DNA of 64,000 bases, from NCBI GenBank assembly GCA_963701085.1, contig OY969561.1, positions 576,001 to 640,000 of the forward strand, read 5' to 3'. This document shows positions 15,592-57,872 of this stretch, in pieces. The notes below the pieces were generated by a model. That model had not been told where the DNA came from, searched no databases, and saw nothing but the letters and a program-made list of their open reading frames with translations. The position numbers were made by a program, and so were the translations under genes. The DNA comes from an uncultured bacterium. Its GTDB lineage: Bacteria; Babelota; Babeliae; Babelales; Vermiphilaceae. The first letter of the stretch is position 1. Each line of letters starts with the position of its first letter.

Positions 15592-15622
15592 TGGCCTGCC
15601 AGCTGAAGCTTTAGCGAAAGTA
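15592..15622 (-). repeat. Family-B element at the tRNA-Leu CCA end
   Basis: CCA-TACTTTCGCTAAAGCTTCAGCTGGCAGG-CCA. Confidence 0.85.
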
Positions 15623-15707
15623 TGGTGCAAGAGGAGGGACTTGAACCCACACGCCTTTCGGCACTGGATCCTAAGTCCAGCGCGTCTGCCAATTCCGCCA
15701 CTCTTGC
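15623..15707 (-). tRNA. tRNA-Leu(TAG)
   Basis: GCAAGAGTGGCGGAATTGGCAGACGCGCTGGACT-TAG-GATCCAG...GTTCAAGTCCCTCCTCTTGCACCA. Confidence 0.97.
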
Positions 15708-15772
15708 ACATTTCAAACAACCAGCTTTGATCTTTTATACTTCAGGGCCCTACTTCGCTCTAATAAAAAAAC

Positions 15773-15803
15773 TGGCCTGCCAGCTGAAGCTTCACGCGAA
15801 AGC
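15773..15803 (-). repeat. Family-B element at the tRNA-Lys CCA end
   Basis: CCA-GCTTTCGCGTGAAGCTTCAGCTGGCAGG-CCA. Confidence 0.85.
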
Positions 15804-15879
15804 TGGTGGGCTGCCTTGGACTCGAACCAAGAACCCACAGATTAAGAGTCTGTTGCTCTGCCAATTGAGCTAGCAACCC
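15804..15879 (-). tRNA. tRNA-Lys(CTT)
   Basis: GGGTTGCTAGCTCAATTGGCAGAGCAACAGACT-CTT-AATCTGT...GTTCGAGTCCAAGGCAGCCCACCA. Confidence 0.97.
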
Positions 15880-15959
15880 AAGATCAAAAACATATGTATA
15901 ATGTACCACAAAATTAAATAAAATAAAGGAGTTAAAACACTTTTTTACTTAATTATCAA

Positions 15960-17072
15960 TTAAGGCTGTAAAAAACGTCTTTCTCCCGTAATCTCAACAA
16001 ATTTATCGTGATACTTAAGCGCCTCCGCGTGATTCAGCTTATCAAGAGCTTTTATATTTCCCTTGGTCGAAACAACCCAACCAATCTCACCCTTTTTAGG
16101 CTCTGCCAACAAACCATTGATCATTTTTATGAGGTCTTGCTCGGACAACTCTTCTTTTGGCTTTTCTTCTTGCGCACCAACCACAGGCGGTTTCGCTGTT
16201 TTTTCTGCTCTCACTTCAGATATACGATCAGCTATTGTTTTTGCAGCGTCTTTTTCAGTCATTATATTTTGATCAACAAGCACTGTTTTCAATATGCTCA
16301 TATTATTAGACCATTTTGAAACAGGGGCCCCATACACATTACGAGTATCAAAACCACCAAACTTTCTTTCTATCTTTCACTTTTTCAACAGCCCTGTCCA
16401 TTCCAATTGATTGGCAATGATAAATTTGTCTAAAAGATCTTTAAATAGACTCACGCAATTTAGCATCATCCAACTTTTTTAATTGTGGTCCATTAAAAAC
16501 TTGTTCAACAACTGTTGGAGCAACTACCTTCTCAGCAGGTTGTGTAGGAACAACTTTAGGAACACCTAGTTTTTTAGCTGGCCCACCAGATGGCGCACTT
16601 TTTTAGGAGGAGCTCGAACGTCCCACAGCTTTTGGCATTGGCTTTCGCCAGACTGCACAGAAGAAACCCCTGGCCCTGTTTCTACAGGCACAACACCGGG
16701 TTTTTCCACAACAATTCCTGATGGCCTACTCACCACACTCGCACGCTTTTGACGAATTTTTTGAGAATAATCACGCGCCAGTTCCCTATCAACCGCTGCA
16801 AGATCAAACAACAAATCGTCTACCCGCTCATCCCACCCACTACCAATAGGCAACTTAAGTTGCGCGTCTAATTCTCTTACAATCGGCACCATCTGAGGTT
16901 GAGCGATGGGTTGAATAACAGGTTGAGCAACAATAGGATTAACAACCGGCTGCATTGTTTGCGCTCGGGTTACTGGTGCAGAAGTCGCTAGCTTTTTAAG
17001 CTGCTTAGCGTCAATAGTATCAACCACTGCACACAATGATATTCCTACAAAAAAAGCTATTATTTTTTGCAT
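15960..17072 (-). CDS. Exported Pro/Val/Lys-rich hypothetical protein, broken by several frameshifts
   Basis: Signal peptide at 17072; alternative frames across 16340-16650 read as a continuous protein (GGPAKKLGVPKVVPTQPAEK...) leading towards ORF 15960-16337. Confidence 0.55.
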
Positions 17073-17116
17073 ACAACTTTCCCTTTTTTATTTTTACTCT
17101 ACACATAATGACAAAA

Positions 17117-55280: not shown

Positions 55281-55316
55281 TATTACATAACTCACTATTT
55301 AGGTGTGTGATAAGGA

Positions 55317-57167
55317 TTATTCAACCGTGACTGATTTTGCTAGATTACGGGGTTTATCAATCGGACATCCACGTTGTTTTGCAATTGCATACACAAAGTA
55401 TTGCATAAGCCCTACCATTGCCAATGGCCCAAGTAATGCCGGCACACTATTAGAAATAACAAATGATGTCTCGGCAAGTTCACACAACTCATGTTGTCCT
55501 TCATATGCAAAAGCAATAATATGTCCGCCACGAGATTTAACTTCATGAGCATTCGAGACAAGCTTTTGATAAATAAGAGGATCGGAATGGGAAAAAATAT
55601 AAACTGGCATCGTTTCATCAACTAATGCCAAATGACCATGCTTAAGCTCTCCTGCCGGATAGCCTTCGGCAAAAACATAACCAATTTCTTTTAATTTCAA
55701 CGCAGCTTCAATTGCAAGCGGAAAACTAATATGTCTGCCCAAAAACAATGCTTTATCATACCGCGCATATTGTTGTGCATAAACACGATCAATATCATGC
55801 TTATGCCGTTCTAAAGAACTTTCCAACAAGTTTGCCACACGCAACAAATCTTCTTCCGCCTGAAACAGTTCTGCGCGATCAATTAATTTTTTTTCAAGAG
55901 CAATGCGATGTGCAAACCAATAATGCGCTGCAATCTGCGTCGAAAAAGCTTTTGTTGAAGCAACCGATACTTCTGGACCTGCATGAGTTAATAAAAAACC
56001 ACCAGCTTCACGCACCATGGTACTTGTTGCAACATTAGTGAGTGTGATAGTGGATAATCCGCCATGGGCATTAATTAATCGCAATGCTTCAAGCGCATCA
56101 GCAGTTTCGCCGGACTGAGAAACGATAATATACAATGTATTTTCTTGCGGAAAGAATGACATATACCGGAATTCAGAAGCTAGATAAACAGAGACAGGAA
56201 CTTTCGCTACTGCTTCAAAATAAAATTGCGCTATACGCGCTCCATGCCAGGAAGTCCCGCATGCTAATAAACATATCTGTTGTACATTTTTTATTTTTTG
56301 AGCAGTAACGCCCAATTGCTCAAACAAAATTGGTTCTAATGCTCGTAATGCCCCAACCGTTTTGGTGATAGCATTTTTCTGCTCATAAATTTCTTTGAGC
56401 ATAAAATGCTCATGCCCACCTTTATCACTGTTCTCAAAAGACAATGTTATTTTTTCTGCTACCACCGGAATCTCTTTACCTGCAAAATCATATGCTTTAA
56501 TGCTATCTTTAAAAACAAATGCAAAGGTTTCATCAGGTAAAAAAAAGACTTTATCGGTTTTTCCCGCAAACGCGATAACATCTGATGCTATAAACATTTC
56601 TCCGTTCCCCATACCAACACAAAGAGGCGATTTTTTACGAACCGCGATCAGCACATCTGGAGATAACTGCGTCATAATAATAAACGCATACATACCATCC
56701 AGTTTTTGCACAAGCTCAGAAATTGTTTTTGGATTAAAACCAGATTGTGCTACATAAGATTCAAAAAGATGACTAACCACTTCTGTATCAGTATCAGATT
56801 CAAATATATGACCTGATTGAAGCAATTGACTTTTTAATTCGTCATGATTTTCAATAATACCGTTATGTACAAGAGAAATTGTTTTAGAGCAATCAAAGTG
56901 TGGATGAGCGTTACGCTCAGAAAAGTCACCATGCGTTGACCAGCGAGTGTGGCCAATACCTGAAAATCCATCAATCGGATTTTGTTTTAAACGCTCTGTT
57001 AACTGAGAAAGTTGACCGGATGCTTTTGAATATAAAAGCTTTTGATTGGTCGGTTCAAGACAGGCAATGCCTGCAGAATCATATCCGCGATATTCTAATC
57101 GAGCCAGTCCTTCTAAAATAAATGTACTACAGAGAGATTTTCCAATATAACCCACAACAGTACACAT
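55317..57167 (-). CDS. glmS: Glutamine-fructose-6-phosphate aminotransferase
   Basis: N-terminal Cys, LEYRGYDSAG, SQSGETAD, PRNLAKSVTVE. Confidence 0.98.
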   Translation of the reverse strand: MCTVVGYIGKSLCSTFILEGLARLEYRGYDSAGIACLEPTNQKLLYSKASGQLSQLTERLKQNPIDGFSGIGHTRWSTHGDFSERNAHPHFDCSKTISLVHNGIIENHDELKSQLLQSGHIFESDTDTEVVSHLFESYVAQSGFNPKTISELVQKLDGMYAFIIMTQLSPDVLIAVRKKSPLCVGMGNGEMFIASDVIAFAGKTDKVFFLPDETFAFVFKDSIKAYDFAGKEIPVVAEKITLSFENSDKGGHEHFMLKEIYEQKNAITKTVGALRALEPILFEQLGVTAQKIKNVQQICLLACGTSWHGARIAQFYFEAVAKVPVSVYLASEFRYMSFFPQENTLYIIVSQSGETADALEALRLINAHGGLSTITLTNVATSTMVREAGGFLLTHAGPEVSVASTKAFSTQIAAHYWFAHRIALEKKLIDRAELFQAEEDLLRVANLLESSLERHKHDIDRVYAQQYARYDKALFLGRHISFPLAIEAALKLKEIGYVFAEGYPAGELKHGHLALVDETMPVYIFSHSDPLIYQKLVSNAHEVKSRGGHIIAFAYEGQHELCELAETSFVISNSVPALLGPLAMVGLMQYFVYAIAKQRGCPIDKPRNLAKSVTVE

Positions 57168-57226
57168 ACCACCGTCTCCTTTTTTTGATTGACCGGCTCG
57201 AATATATAACTTTGTTGAAAAACGGT

Positions 57227-57649
57227 TTAACGTTTTACGAATTGGAACTTAGCACGAGCACCTTTTTGACCATATTTTTTACGCTCTTTTTTGCGAGCGT
57301 CAACGGTCATCAAGCCATGTTTTTTCAAAATAGGCTTTGCATTAGCATCAAATTCAACAAATGCACGCGCAATACCTAATTTTACCGCATTAGCTTGGGC
57401 AACTTTGCCGCCACCACATACATTAGCTTCAACATTAAACTCTGCTCCAATTGGGCACACTTTGAATGGAATTGCCGCTACATCAGCTGCAACTTTAGTG
57501 TCAAAATAGTTTACATAGTCGCAACCATTGACGGTAATTTTGCCATTACCACGACGCAACCATATACGCGCCACTGCAGTTTTGCGGCGTCCTACGCCAT
57601 GAGCAACAGGAGAATTAGAATTAGCAGGCTTTATTATTTCTTTTGCCAT
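57227..57649 (-). CDS. rpsI: 30S ribosomal protein S9
   Basis: GRRKTAVAR, GGG, ERKKYG, QFVKR. Confidence 0.97.
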   Translation of the reverse strand: MAKEIIKPANSNSPVAHGVGRRKTAVARIWLRRGNGKITVNGCDYVNYFDTKVAADVAAIPFKVCPIGAEFNVEANVCGGGKVAQANAVKLGIARAFVEFDANAKPILKKHGLMTVDARKKERKKYGQKGARAKFQFVKR

Positions 57650-57761
57650 ATCGCACTATAACCTTCTGGTATGATTTAACAGGAATTTTTCTAAATACAA
57701 TGATTTTGCTAATTAGTATAAAGCCATAAAGCTTAATTGTCAAAAATAGGCTATTTTTTGA

Positions 57762-57797
57762 TGGCCCGCCATACGAAGCTCCGCAAGGAGCGAAGTA
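57762..57797 (-). repeat. Family-B element at the tRNA-Thr CCA end
   Basis: CCA-TACTTCGCTCCTTGCGGAGCTTCGTATGGCGGG-CCA. Confidence 0.87.
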
Positions 57798-57872
57798 TGG
57801 AGCCGATGATCGGACTTGAACCGATGACCTACTGATTACGAATCAATTGCTCTACCACTGAGCTACATCGGC
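57798..57872 (-). tRNA. tRNA-Thr(CGT)
   Basis: GCCGATGTAGCTCAGTGGTAGAGCAATTGATT-CGT-AATCAGT...GTTCAAGTCCGATCATCGGCTCCA. Confidence 0.96.

Follow-up and report, generated by a model that had tools for sequence, protein, structure and literature searches.

A CCA-anchored hairpin module behind the tRNA genes of an uncultured Vermiphilaceae bacterium and its link to a minimal GIY-YIG nuclease gene

In the genome of an uncultured bacterium of the family Vermiphilaceae (Babelota; Babelales; assembly GCA_963701085.1, contig OY969561.1), the encoded CCA of most tRNA genes is followed by a small hairpin and a second CCA. The stretch analysed here, referred to as the window, is 64,000 nucleotides (nt) long and corresponds to bases 576001-640000 of a single-contig genome of 1,198,634 bp with a G+C content of 37%. 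It contains four tRNA genes, each followed by a copy of the 31-34-nt hairpin module at the tRNA CCA end, which we name H1. The module is inserted DNA with rapid turnover between congeners, and not a fixed trailer, and it is linked, both from the hairpin to the gene and from the gene to the hairpin, to a gene for a small GIY-YIG domain protein (GIY-1), with which it co-occurs across relatives. We consider it fairly probable that H1 represents the tRNA-proximal end, mostly gene-less, of a GIY-YIG-associated selfish element that targets the encoded CCA of tRNA and transfer-messenger RNA (tmRNA) genes.

All four tRNA genes of the window are located on the minus strand (ARAGORN and Rfam), and the sequence past the encoded CCA follows a common layout in 4/4 of them, which in RNA sense reads N3-TTCGC-loop-GCTTC-N3'-TGG-C(A/G)GG-CCA. 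A first-pass annotation of the window, made from its letters, had described this succession of CCA, hairpin and second CCA at each of the four genes, and a pattern search bears it out: TTCGC-N3-10-GCTTC-NNN-TGG-C-N-GG-CCA has four matches in the window, all at tRNA ends, with none expected and none found in 100 dinucleotide-preserving shuffles. As that annotation had also stated, the CCA and the next three nt form one arm of a stem in the Lys, Ser and Thr copies, where they pair with N3'-TGG (-9.4 to -15.4 kcal/mol; RNAfold). The folding z-scores of single copies are modest (-0.8 to -2.4), the most stable being tRNA-Thr H1 with an extended apical stem, GCTCC/GGAGC (-15.4 kcal/mol; z -2.39). 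The Leu copy, which had been reported to pair imperfectly, is chimeric, with a TAC 5' arm set against an AGC 3' arm, no stem fold and a z-score of +0.97. For tRNA-Lys H1 an alternative small hairpin, AGCUGG-CAGG-CCAGU, followed by U7, is predicted. The trailer hairpins of the window are confirmed as real and as correctly described. None of the Rfam families covers H1 or its inverted partner H2 (see below); at gathering score the window yields the four tRNAs and a signal recognition particle (SRP) RNA only, and a permissive Rfam search of nine loci returned only tRNA, tmRNA and chance-level matches.

Genome-wide, 35 tRNAs are predicted by ARAGORN, 35/35 of which encode the CCA, and the module is present at 23 of these and at the 3' end of the tmRNA (Rfam RF00023). 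Eighteen of the 23 copies show 3/3 N3 pairs in a scripted search, and the remaining five irregular copies, like that of the tmRNA, were judged by eye. The irregular copies are those of Ser-tga (one T.T mismatch), Leu-gag (1-nt bulge), Leu-tag (chimeric arms), Val-tac (a shifted hairpin behind TACTTTTA) and Asp (a variant followed by T7), and a script match at tRNA-Thr-ggt (a 79-nt GAT...ATT-TGG span) was dropped as a chance match. The twelve module-free tRNAs are Ile, Ala, Gly-tcc, Thr-ggt, Trp, three Met, Asn, Pro, Cys and Gly-gcc. ARAGORN reports a 'permuted' tmRNA with an odd tag peptide at 884986-885655; the standard Rfam tmRNA model matches the 3' part of this locus, with the match ending at the locus end, and the permuted call is probably wrong. 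The Ser-gct and Leu-gag units are almost identical over ~60 nt, which points to copying between different tRNA genes. A T-run lies right behind the second CCA in 7-8/23 copies (by eye), and none is seen at Thr-cgt, Ser-gga and Leu-tag of the window. A hairpin of 5-6 bp with a CAGG or CAAG loop is predicted by RNAfold immediately ahead of the U-run at Lys, His and Arg-tct, and the run abuts this small alternative hairpin only and not the main stem. Parts of window positions 31000-33500 are present in 20 public read runs, with at most 0.29 of the sampled words in a single run; an RNA run among them reaches 0.05. In contigs of four read runs, pile-ups are found on the tRNA 3' half and the H1 5' arm, from many organisms.

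A covariance model built from 30 copies (R1) has 63 matches in the genome at E <= 1. Of the 14 best, 12 lie at tRNA ends, one at the end of the tmRNA and one, an orphan, at genome position 327459; the tRNA-Ser-gga copy of the window scores highest. The CCA...TGG variant is thus nearly confined to CCA-ending RNA genes; the first-pass annotation had named equal abundance away from tRNAs as evidence that would count against its proposal. The weaker R1 matches represent a generic family, NCCNNC-TWCGC-YAAR-GCTWCG-NNGGN-CA(G/C)G, of ~30 nt with TCC or CCC as first triplets, of which the genome holds ~60 further copies by a by-eye estimate (a regular expression gives 141 matches, many due to chance). 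The resemblance of the trailers to a free 30-nt hairpin family, proposed from the window, extends to the whole genome, and the tRNA-linked hairpins are therefore the CCA-starting subset of this larger family. The orphan (~327350-327461; locus L129, 1100-1212) has no Rfam RNA upstream. It is preceded by ~110 nt, ..TAGTAAATTTCTGG.TTAAT.TTAAATGATGAATATACCGTCTGGATC...GGTG...CCA, that are conserved with locus L288 of the related genome G015, where a GIY-1 gene follows the orphan-type stretch; the ~110-nt stretch could be an unidentified CCA-ending RNA or a decayed tRNA.

The fold of the module comprises a 6-bp stem, a symmetric 3x3 internal loop and a G-C/C-G clamp, topped by either a loop or an additional covarying apical stem. 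The internal loop, which the first-pass annotation did not name, is conserved as 5'-TWC opposite 5'-TWC. Covariation was assessed on an alignment of 64 distinct copies, drawn from this genome, its congeners, other phyla and the loci selected by protein. The alignment was fitted to the model, which favours pairing, and has 99.2% of its cells paired; 0/500 shuffles reach the observed score, and slid controls fall far short of it. The covariation claimed earlier for the window copies thus holds on the larger set. The three N3 positions are occupied by GC 30, UA 26, CG 5 and AU 3, by CG 37 and AU 23, and by CG 57 and UA 7, respectively, and the first two stem pairs (C-G, C-G) are invariant and hence uninformative on covariation. 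Part of the 'covariation' reflects spreading subfamilies and not stepwise compensation, because whole triplet types (TAC, GCT, GAC, GCC, TCC and ACC) recur in different genomes. The hairpin is maintained as a structure, in single-stranded DNA or RNA. A CCA follows within <=7 nt of the stem in ~52/64 copies, mostly behind the linkers CAGG, CACGG or CAAG (rough parsing).

Comparison with 30 relatives, ten of them congeners, reveals the module as inserted DNA. At an R1 threshold of E <= 1e-4 the ten congeners have 0, 38, 24, 16, 6, 11, 24, 14, 32 and 12 matches, and several families of the order have none. All tRNA flanks were read in two congeners, G006 and G011. G006, which is of the same genus and 95% complete, has no R1 match. 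In 36/36 of its tRNAs a single CCA borders on an AT-rich flank, many of the 36 share an identical 3' end with their counterpart in this genome, and the tmRNA is likewise empty; a decayed 5' half at Ser-gct is the only remnant of the family. The empty orthologous sites with a single CCA that the first-pass annotation had looked to as a sign of insertion thus exist at all 36 tRNAs and the tmRNA of one congener. G011 carries H1 at 10/34 tRNAs, including Asn, which is empty in this genome, and is itself empty at Arg-tct, Arg-cct, Thr-tgt and Glu, all occupied in this genome. Where both are occupied, the N3 often differs between G011 and this genome (Tyr, TAC vs GAC; Lys-ctt, TAC vs GCT; Ser-gga, GCT vs TAC). 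The states of the tmRNA in congeners range from empty (G006) through H1-H2 without a gene (G012) to H1-H2 with a gene (G010), with other insertions in between.

The junctions of these insertions can be read at several sites. The spacer between Lys-ctt and Leu-tag is 12 nt in G006 (TCTTTAAAATGT), 96 nt in this genome and ~112 nt in G011, and in both longer spacers the extra DNA begins at the CCA and the old spacer stands at the right end, here as TGTTTGAAATGT at 15708-15719. The right end of the insert in this genome, AAAGCTGG, is an inverted repeat of CCAGCTTT. A second abundant repeat of the genome (..TCAACAAGTT joined to CAGGGCGAGC..) is found in 113 empty copies against 5 filled ones, and the filled repeats hold exactly one 30-32-nt generic hairpin between AAGYT and CAGG, with no target duplication. 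At locus L113, three units are arranged head to tail, the second CCA of one being the first CCA of the next. The earlier proposal that a CCA-starting variant of the family inserts at the tRNA CCA is upheld as regards insertion, while the placement just before the CCA is ambiguous owing to the 3-nt repeat: the Lys-ctt/Leu-tag spacer favours a unit [N3...CAGG-CCA] inserted after the old CCA, and the nested inserts in the second repeat favour a unit [CCA...CAGG] that starts with its own first triplet.

A second type of trailer, CCA-NACTTTTA-[CCCNNN...NNNGGG hairpin]-ACCC(A), is found in G011 behind at least seven tRNAs (His, two Met, Leu-tag, Phe, Leu-taa, Gln and Leu-gag; loci L178-L193). In this genome it is located behind Val-tac (248815) and at window positions 15560-15591, past the second CCA of tRNA-Leu, where the sequence TACTTTTATCCC constitutes the start of the 'type-2' trailer; the same start lies directly behind the CCA of Leu-tag in G011.

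Full-length units have the order tRNA-CCA, H1, C-N2-4-CCA, AT-rich spacer (often ..TTTTTAAAGG..TTGATAGCAAA), GCGAA-N3'-TG, H2, 15-30 nt and the ATG of GIY-1, where H2 is an inverted hairpin of the generic family. A strict regular expression for H2 caught 4/24 copies, and the remaining H2 and complement assignments were made by eye. By this reading, GCGAA-N3'-TG perfectly complements the H1 5' arm including its own N3 at Thr-tgt, Ser-gga, His, Glu, Ser-tga and the tmRNA, and with one mismatch in G010. Neither this partner hairpin nor the GIY-YIG gene figures in the first-pass annotation. The tRNA-proximal CCA-N3-TTCGC therefore has two possible partners, one near and imperfect and one far and perfect. 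In the Ser-gga unit of the window, GCGAAGTATG (tRNA sense) is the perfect complement of CATACTTCGC of H1, and H2, read on the plus strand, is a generic family copy, CCCTAC-TTCGC...GCTACG-AAGGG-CA-TACTTCGC, with a second family copy nested in its loop. No GIY-YIG open reading frame (ORF) follows this H2, and the next gene is that of the bacterial small SRP RNA (window 31766-31858 (-)), which lies ~45 nt behind the H1-spacer-H2 unit on the same strand. Gene-less H1-spacer-H2 units of this kind also follow Thr-tgt, Ser-gct and His, and most copies in this genome are without a gene, either as solo H1 or as H1-spacer-H2 miniatures. Their ends are inverted, with CCA-N3-TTCGC set against GCGAA-N3'-TG and matched within the copy (by eye), as are CCAGCTTT and AAAGCTGG of the Lys-Leu insert; in miniature inverted-repeat transposable elements (MITEs), such ends go with a target-site duplication and with descent from a gene-bearing parent. 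Gene-bearing and gene-less forms share one kind of site, with no clear duplication beyond the ambiguous CCA.

The GIY-1 gene was first spotted as an ORF between two hairpin copies at a Saccharibacteria locus, and its product was used as a local tblastn query. In this genome, GIY-1 is located outside the window at 843855-844097 (-), 112 nt behind the tRNA-Glu hairpin. It encodes 80 amino acids, residues 1-72 of which match PF01541 (E-value: 1.6e-15; 57.6 bits against a cut-off of 22.6), with no further Pfam match and no match to an NCBIfam model. Twelve GIY-1 sequences share the invariant residues Y5, Y17, G19, R27, H31 and E63, which we take to have catalytic roles, and a tail, FEKYLKSGSGxAFAKKR. 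The nearest solved relatives are 1zg2 (UPF0213 protein BH0048; E-value: 4.1e-12), SLX1 structures (E-values: 3e-10 to 8e-7; 7cq2, 3e-10) and 1ywl (E-value: 5.6e-6). GIY-1 thus consists of the minimal GIY-YIG domain with no auxiliary ones, its closest affinities are to UPF0213 and SLX1, and the protein looks like an active nuclease. Public names extend no further than 'GIY-YIG nuclease family protein' or 'putative endonuclease'.

Hairpin and gene lead to each other. An exact-pattern scan for the TAC type, with one genome per species, gave at least 120 loci, and a GIY-YIG ORF (E <= 4e-15) is present in 16/120 hairpin loci among the matches listed, 12 of these <500 nt downstream of the hairpin and on the same strand. 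In the reverse test, the species-genome collection was searched by protein alignment alone, yielding at least 587 relatives among 600 candidate stretches. Among the best 80 of these loci, 59 have a same-strand tRNA (49) or tmRNA (10) that ends 80-390 nt before the ORF, and in those 59 a family hairpin begins at or directly behind the CCA. The same best 80 include 52 loci with a plus-strand R1 match upstream and many loci with a minus-strand match just before the start codon, and are drawn from many phyla, including cultured Aquisalinus, Bradyrhizobium, Brevundimonas and Geomonas. In some Alphaproteobacteria a variant occurs in which the stem begins past the CCA (CCA + TCCTGC-TTCGC...GCTTCG-CAGGA). 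Across 31 genomes of the order, which as related genomes are not independent, both R1 and GIY-1 (E <= 1e-15) are found in 15, the hairpin only in six, the gene only in two and neither in eight. Genomes G015 and G029 hold four GIY-1 copies each, every copy behind its own tRNA, tmRNA or H1.

This genome also encodes a second GIY-YIG subfamily of 96-115 amino acids (PF01541), and in 4/4 of its genes (Table 1) the flanks are formed by the genome's other abundant repeat (CGCTCRTCCTGAACTTGTTGAAGGAT / ATCCTTCAACAAGTTCAGGAYGAGCG), inverted in the manner of terminal inverted repeats. This repeat has 118 copies by pattern, which often form gene-less back-to-back inverted pairs of MITE-like look, and solo copies occur in the window, e.g. 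near 550-572, 8679-8710, 31673-31704 and 62408-62439.

The TAC-type hairpin extends far beyond the genus. By record title, the matches listed belong mostly to Dependentiae, Babeliales or TM6, and also to Saccharibacteria, other candidate phyla, Alpha- and Gammaproteobacteria, Victivallis, Akkermansia, Bacteroidales, Myxococcales and WOR-3. Again among the matches listed, 84/126 abut an ARAGORN tRNA end within 3 nt, with several others behind tmRNA-like or tRNA-like 3' ends. Searches with R1 in five non-Dependentiae genomes gave 1-9 copies each. In an Akkermansia bin, 5/9 copies stand behind complete or cut-off tRNAs (three Ser, Thr and Val; one Ser by eye) with the triplets TAC, TCC and GCC, and the other 4/9 are generic copies in G+C-rich DNA. 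Not all copies can be mis-binned Dependentiae sequence, because some flanks are G+C-rich. At locus L138 of a Saccharibacteria bin (G004:C9:188200-188800), four tandem 101-nt units each consist of a 12-nt tRNA/tmRNA-like 3' end (CCAGCTCCACCA), a GAC-type hairpin and a spacer, and a fifth such 3' end without a hairpin follows the four units.

From the gene linkage we infer that the nuclease may move the hairpins, and a mechanism can be envisaged. GIY-1 would act, like Slx1, as a structure-specific nuclease and nick folded DNA, either at the end of a tRNA gene or at mismatched hairpins, and the nick would start copying of the unit into new CCA ends, both in cis and in trans, with only those units whose first triplet is CCA surviving at tRNA ends. 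Because the stem opens with CCA, a tRNA gene with an insertion keeps a complete encoded CCA end, which would explain the tolerance of insertions at 23/35 tRNAs. The constant orientation could result from strand-specific recognition, from transcription of the nuclease gene off the tRNA promoter, or from both. The T-run past the second CCA in some copies may serve a secondary role as terminator of the tRNA transcript, and in GCT or GCC copies the small N3'-UGG-CAGG-CCA-N hairpin before the U-run may likewise have a secondary role in RNA. A wider proposal, which we put forward tentatively as possible rather than probable, is that a bare Slx1-like GIY-YIG nuclease drives CCA-exact insertion in at least ten phyla and leaves swarms of gene-less hairpins, and so represents a new class of mobile element, the 'GIY-YIG REPtron'.

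Several observations weigh against a selfish element driven by GIY-1. The mobility ascribed to the nuclease is a proposal drawn from gene linkage, and the 80-amino-acid protein has no separate DNA-binding domain, unlike the known GIY-YIG homing endonucleases. No strong GIY-1 match was found in 6/21 hairpin-bearing genomes, and two genomes have the gene without R1; some of these assemblies are incomplete. No clear target-site duplication accompanies the inserts, and their boundary at the CCA carries a 3-nt ambiguity. Comparison of the tRNA-Glu loci of this genome, G006 and G011 yields no right end for the full-length element, because synteny among them stops at the tRNA. A cassette bounded by a repeat of the tRNA 3' end was considered and rejected, as a direct repeat past the ORF is found in 1/59 loci (exceptions L141, L027 and L291). 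Constant orientation and T-runs would fit a role at the RNA level too. Metagenome bins make up most of the genomes used, so some phylum labels may be in error. On inspection, a route in which the tRNA primes synthesis of the 3' arm was likewise rejected, since CCATAC-TTCGC of the 5' arm does not complement GCTTC-GTATGG of the 3' arm.

The RNA-level role has been considered in its own right, with the module as a host-serving element, kept by selection at the RNA level, whose CCA-sequestering trailer hairpin, small hairpin and U-run would act as a tRNA terminator and/or a 3'-processing signal, the GIY-YIG gene being only a frequent passenger. The orientation to the tRNA is constant, the stem covaries, and the 7-8 T-runs and the 5-6-bp hairpins predicted right before the U-run at Lys, His and Arg-tct count in its favour. 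Moreover, the 12 module-free tRNAs mostly stand in operons or abut the next gene (by eye): Ile and Ala belong to the rRNA operon, Gly-tcc and Asn precede the next tRNA by 6-13 nt, and ORF starts follow Trp, Pro and Gly-gcc. The chief problem of this explanation is that the module is dispensable, given that G006, with 36 tRNAs and a tmRNA, has no copy and that 8/31 genomes lack both hairpin and gene. The same tRNA carries differing stem triplets, or none, in congeners, and in G011 a module sits between Asn and Asp, which elsewhere are 6-8 nt apart. In addition, the U-run begins 8-9 nt past the main stem, the same hairpin family inserts into repeats that are not tRNAs, and near-identical sequences at 1-9 copies per genome in distant phyla fit transfer better than a host signal. 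We therefore regard a host function as the primary explanation as unlikely.

Considerably less probable still is an ordinary family of repetitive extragenic palindromic (REP) or REPIN sequences, or its relics, moved by a REP-associated tyrosine transposase (RAYT, of the IS200/IS605-type Y1 kind) and piling up behind tRNAs as REPs do behind genes at large. The size, palindromic shape, copy number, nesting and inverted doublets of the hairpins are all REP/REPIN-like, and REP families with unpaired CCA tails are described in five phyla in the available part of Di Nocera et al. 2013 (PMC3733652). However, the RAYT domain PF01797 has no match in this genome (92.6% complete), with the control positive in 6/14 reference genomes. 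The position of H1 is exact to the nucleotide (C74) and not just 'downstream of genes', the gene linked in both directions encodes a GIY-YIG nuclease and not a Y1 transposase, and the GTAG/CGTC tag and AT-starting stems of such families were not seen, the consensus being compared with the available description only. The term 'REP-like' used in the first-pass annotation is accordingly apt for a ~30-nt palindrome with many copies and nesting, and inapt if it is meant to denote RAYT-type REPs, as no Y1 transposase was found in this genome. A third possibility, that the hairpins are part of tRNA/tmRNA attachment (att) sites and represent scars of integrase-mediated islands, is in our opinion the most remote. 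It draws on the partial tRNA/tmRNA 3' ends that precede H1 at L138 (the four 101-nt units), L141, L027, L291 and G009:C40, and on a large serine recombinase (by eye) behind tRNA-Glu in G011. In this genome, however, the hairpins follow intact tRNAs, with neither a duplicated tRNA fragment nor an integrase seen beside them; the unit is just 31-160 nt; a repeat of the tRNA 3' end past the GIY-YIG ORF is seen in 1/59 loci; and the stem triplets covary, which att cores would not need. The recombinase-like ORF of G011 (locus L276, 382-1887 (-)) is 501 amino acids long, starts MKAILIARVSTQEQ and stands right behind tRNA-Glu; it marks this tRNA end as a general integration hot spot.

The features of the window that underlie these comparisons, together with the genes of the second GIY-YIG subfamily, are listed in Table 1.

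Table 1. Coordinates of the tRNA genes and hairpin units of the window, and of the second GIY-YIG subfamily elsewhere in the genome
Feature	Position	Strand	Support or sequence (tRNA sense for H1)
tRNA-Leu (anticodon tag), CCA encoded	15623..15707	-	ARAGORN; Rfam RF00005, 56 bits
tRNA-Lys (anticodon ctt), CCA encoded	15804..15879	-	ARAGORN, Rfam
tRNA-Ser (anticodon gga), CCA encoded	32055..32146	-	ARAGORN, Rfam
tRNA-Thr (anticodon cgt), CCA encoded	57798..57872	-	ARAGORN, Rfam
H1 of tRNA-Leu, tRNA CCA through second CCA	15592..15625	-	TAC-TTTCGC-TAAA-GCTTC-AGC-TGG-CAGG-CCA
H1 of tRNA-Lys, N3 = GCT/AGC	15773..15806	-	GCT-TTCGC-GTGAA-GCTTC-AGC-TGG-CAGG-CCA; R1 45.3 bits
H1 of tRNA-Ser, N3 = TAC/GTA	32024..32057	-	TAC-TTCGC-GTAAA-GCTTC-GTA-TGG-CAGG-CCA; R1 53.7 bits
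H1 of tRNA-Thr, N3 = TAC/GTA, linker CGGG	57762..57800	-	TAC-TTCGC-TCCTTGCGGA-GCTTC-GTA-TGG-CGGG-CCA
Insert between tRNA-Lys and tRNA-Leu: H1, T-run, partner-hairpin remnant GAGCGAAGTAGGGC, right end AAAGCTGG	15722..15806	-	
AT-rich spacer of the Ser-gga unit, ACTTCTCAAAGGTTTGAC...GGATAGCAAGA	31972..32023	-	Spacer type conserved before the GIY-YIG gene in full-length copies elsewhere
Partner module of the Ser-gga unit: GCGAAGTATG, then inverted hairpin H2	31903..31971	+	
Second GIY-YIG subfamily gene (genome coordinates, outside the window)	231631-231942	+	
Second GIY-YIG subfamily gene (genome coordinates, outside the window)	1091357-1091704	+	
Second GIY-YIG subfamily gene (genome coordinates, outside the window)	1102879-1103169	+	
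Second GIY-YIG subfamily gene (genome coordinates, outside the window)	339150-339440	-	

The CCA-anchored, GIY-YIG-linked element that we favour can be set beside several known systems. As in REP/RAYT systems (REPtrons), tens of short imperfect palindromes with inverted doublets and nesting are accompanied by one or a few linked nuclease-type genes, which the repeats flank, and by many gene-less copies. Here, however, the linked gene encodes a GIY-YIG protein in place of a Y1 (HUH) enzyme, PF01797 has no match in this genome, and one subfamily occupies a fixed nucleotide of tRNA and tmRNA genes. REPs are usually lineage-specific, whereas the H1 consensus recurs across phyla. The IS200/IS605 transposons have hairpin ends, produce no target duplication and insert beside a short fixed word that resembles the other end of the element. 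Similarly, the H1 unit has one CCA as its left flank and another as its right end, but no TnpA (Y1) was found in this genome and the first CCA is paired inside the hairpin. A relation to the CGTC-tagged REPs of Di Nocera, De Gregorio and Rocco (2013; PMC3733652) is possible, the comparison being with their description only. In the available part of that paper, these are small stem-loops of several phyla without a dedicated transposase and with a short unpaired tail that fits CCA, and they have a CGTC (or TGTC/CCTC) tag, an 8-9-bp stem starting with two A-T pairs, a 4-5-nt loop and no stated tRNA link. The H1 stem, by comparison, is of 6 bp, starts with CCA (C-G, C-G, A-U) and has the TWC/TWC internal loop and GC clamp. 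The word CGTC is present only in the GAC-type copies of H1.

On the side of the nuclease, a parallel in position is provided by SegB of phage T4, a GIY-YIG homing endonuclease within a tRNA gene cluster (PMC2330249, available part), where a nuclease gene among or behind tRNA genes is likewise passed on as a selfish cassette. Enzymes of this I-TevI/Seg type join the catalytic domain to a sequence-specific DNA-binding region and cut alleles without the gene. The homing endonucleases known so far exceed GIY-1 in size and have separate DNA-binding domains (Dunin-Horkawicz et al. 2006, available part), whereas GIY-1 is a bare 80-amino-acid catalytic domain with a conserved tail, accompanied by hairpin modules, in cellular genomes of many phyla. 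The minimal domain is shared with the stand-alone Slx1-like and UPF0213 proteins (PDB 1zg2 and 1ywl) and with eukaryotic SLX1. Dunin-Horkawicz et al. (2006) count about 190 stand-alone Slx1-like proteins in bacteria, to which no role is assigned, and note a fusion to a tRNA methyltransferase; in the available part of that survey neither a function, a genomic context nor a link to tRNA-end hairpins is given for the bacterial members. In the literature searched, which excludes subscription journals and supplements, neither the hairpin nor its linkage to a GIY-YIG gene was found described, and within that scope the association appears to be undescribed.

SLX1 cuts branched and stem-loop DNA. Small hairpin repeats abound in bacterial genomes and, to our knowledge, the RAYT-linked ones are alone in having a known driver. 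The present data tie one hairpin family to a different nuclease fold and to a precise and universal target, the encoded CCA of tRNA and tmRNA genes. On the wider proposal above, the GIY-YIG nuclease could supply the enzyme that REP-like repeats without a RAYT are missing. Should the nuclease be the driver, a further enzyme class would be added to the prokaryotic transposition or homing systems, a function would be available for a large group of proteins annotated as 'GIY-YIG nuclease family protein', and some of the spurious small ORFs and repeats in genomes of uncultured bacteria would be accounted for. In annotation, the module marks the exact 3' end of tRNAs, tmRNAs and perhaps of unrecognised CCA-ending RNAs. 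As in this reduced genome two out of three tRNAs have a trailer that pairs with their own CCA, and none has it in a congener, the effect of the trailer on tRNA 3' maturation is directly testable.

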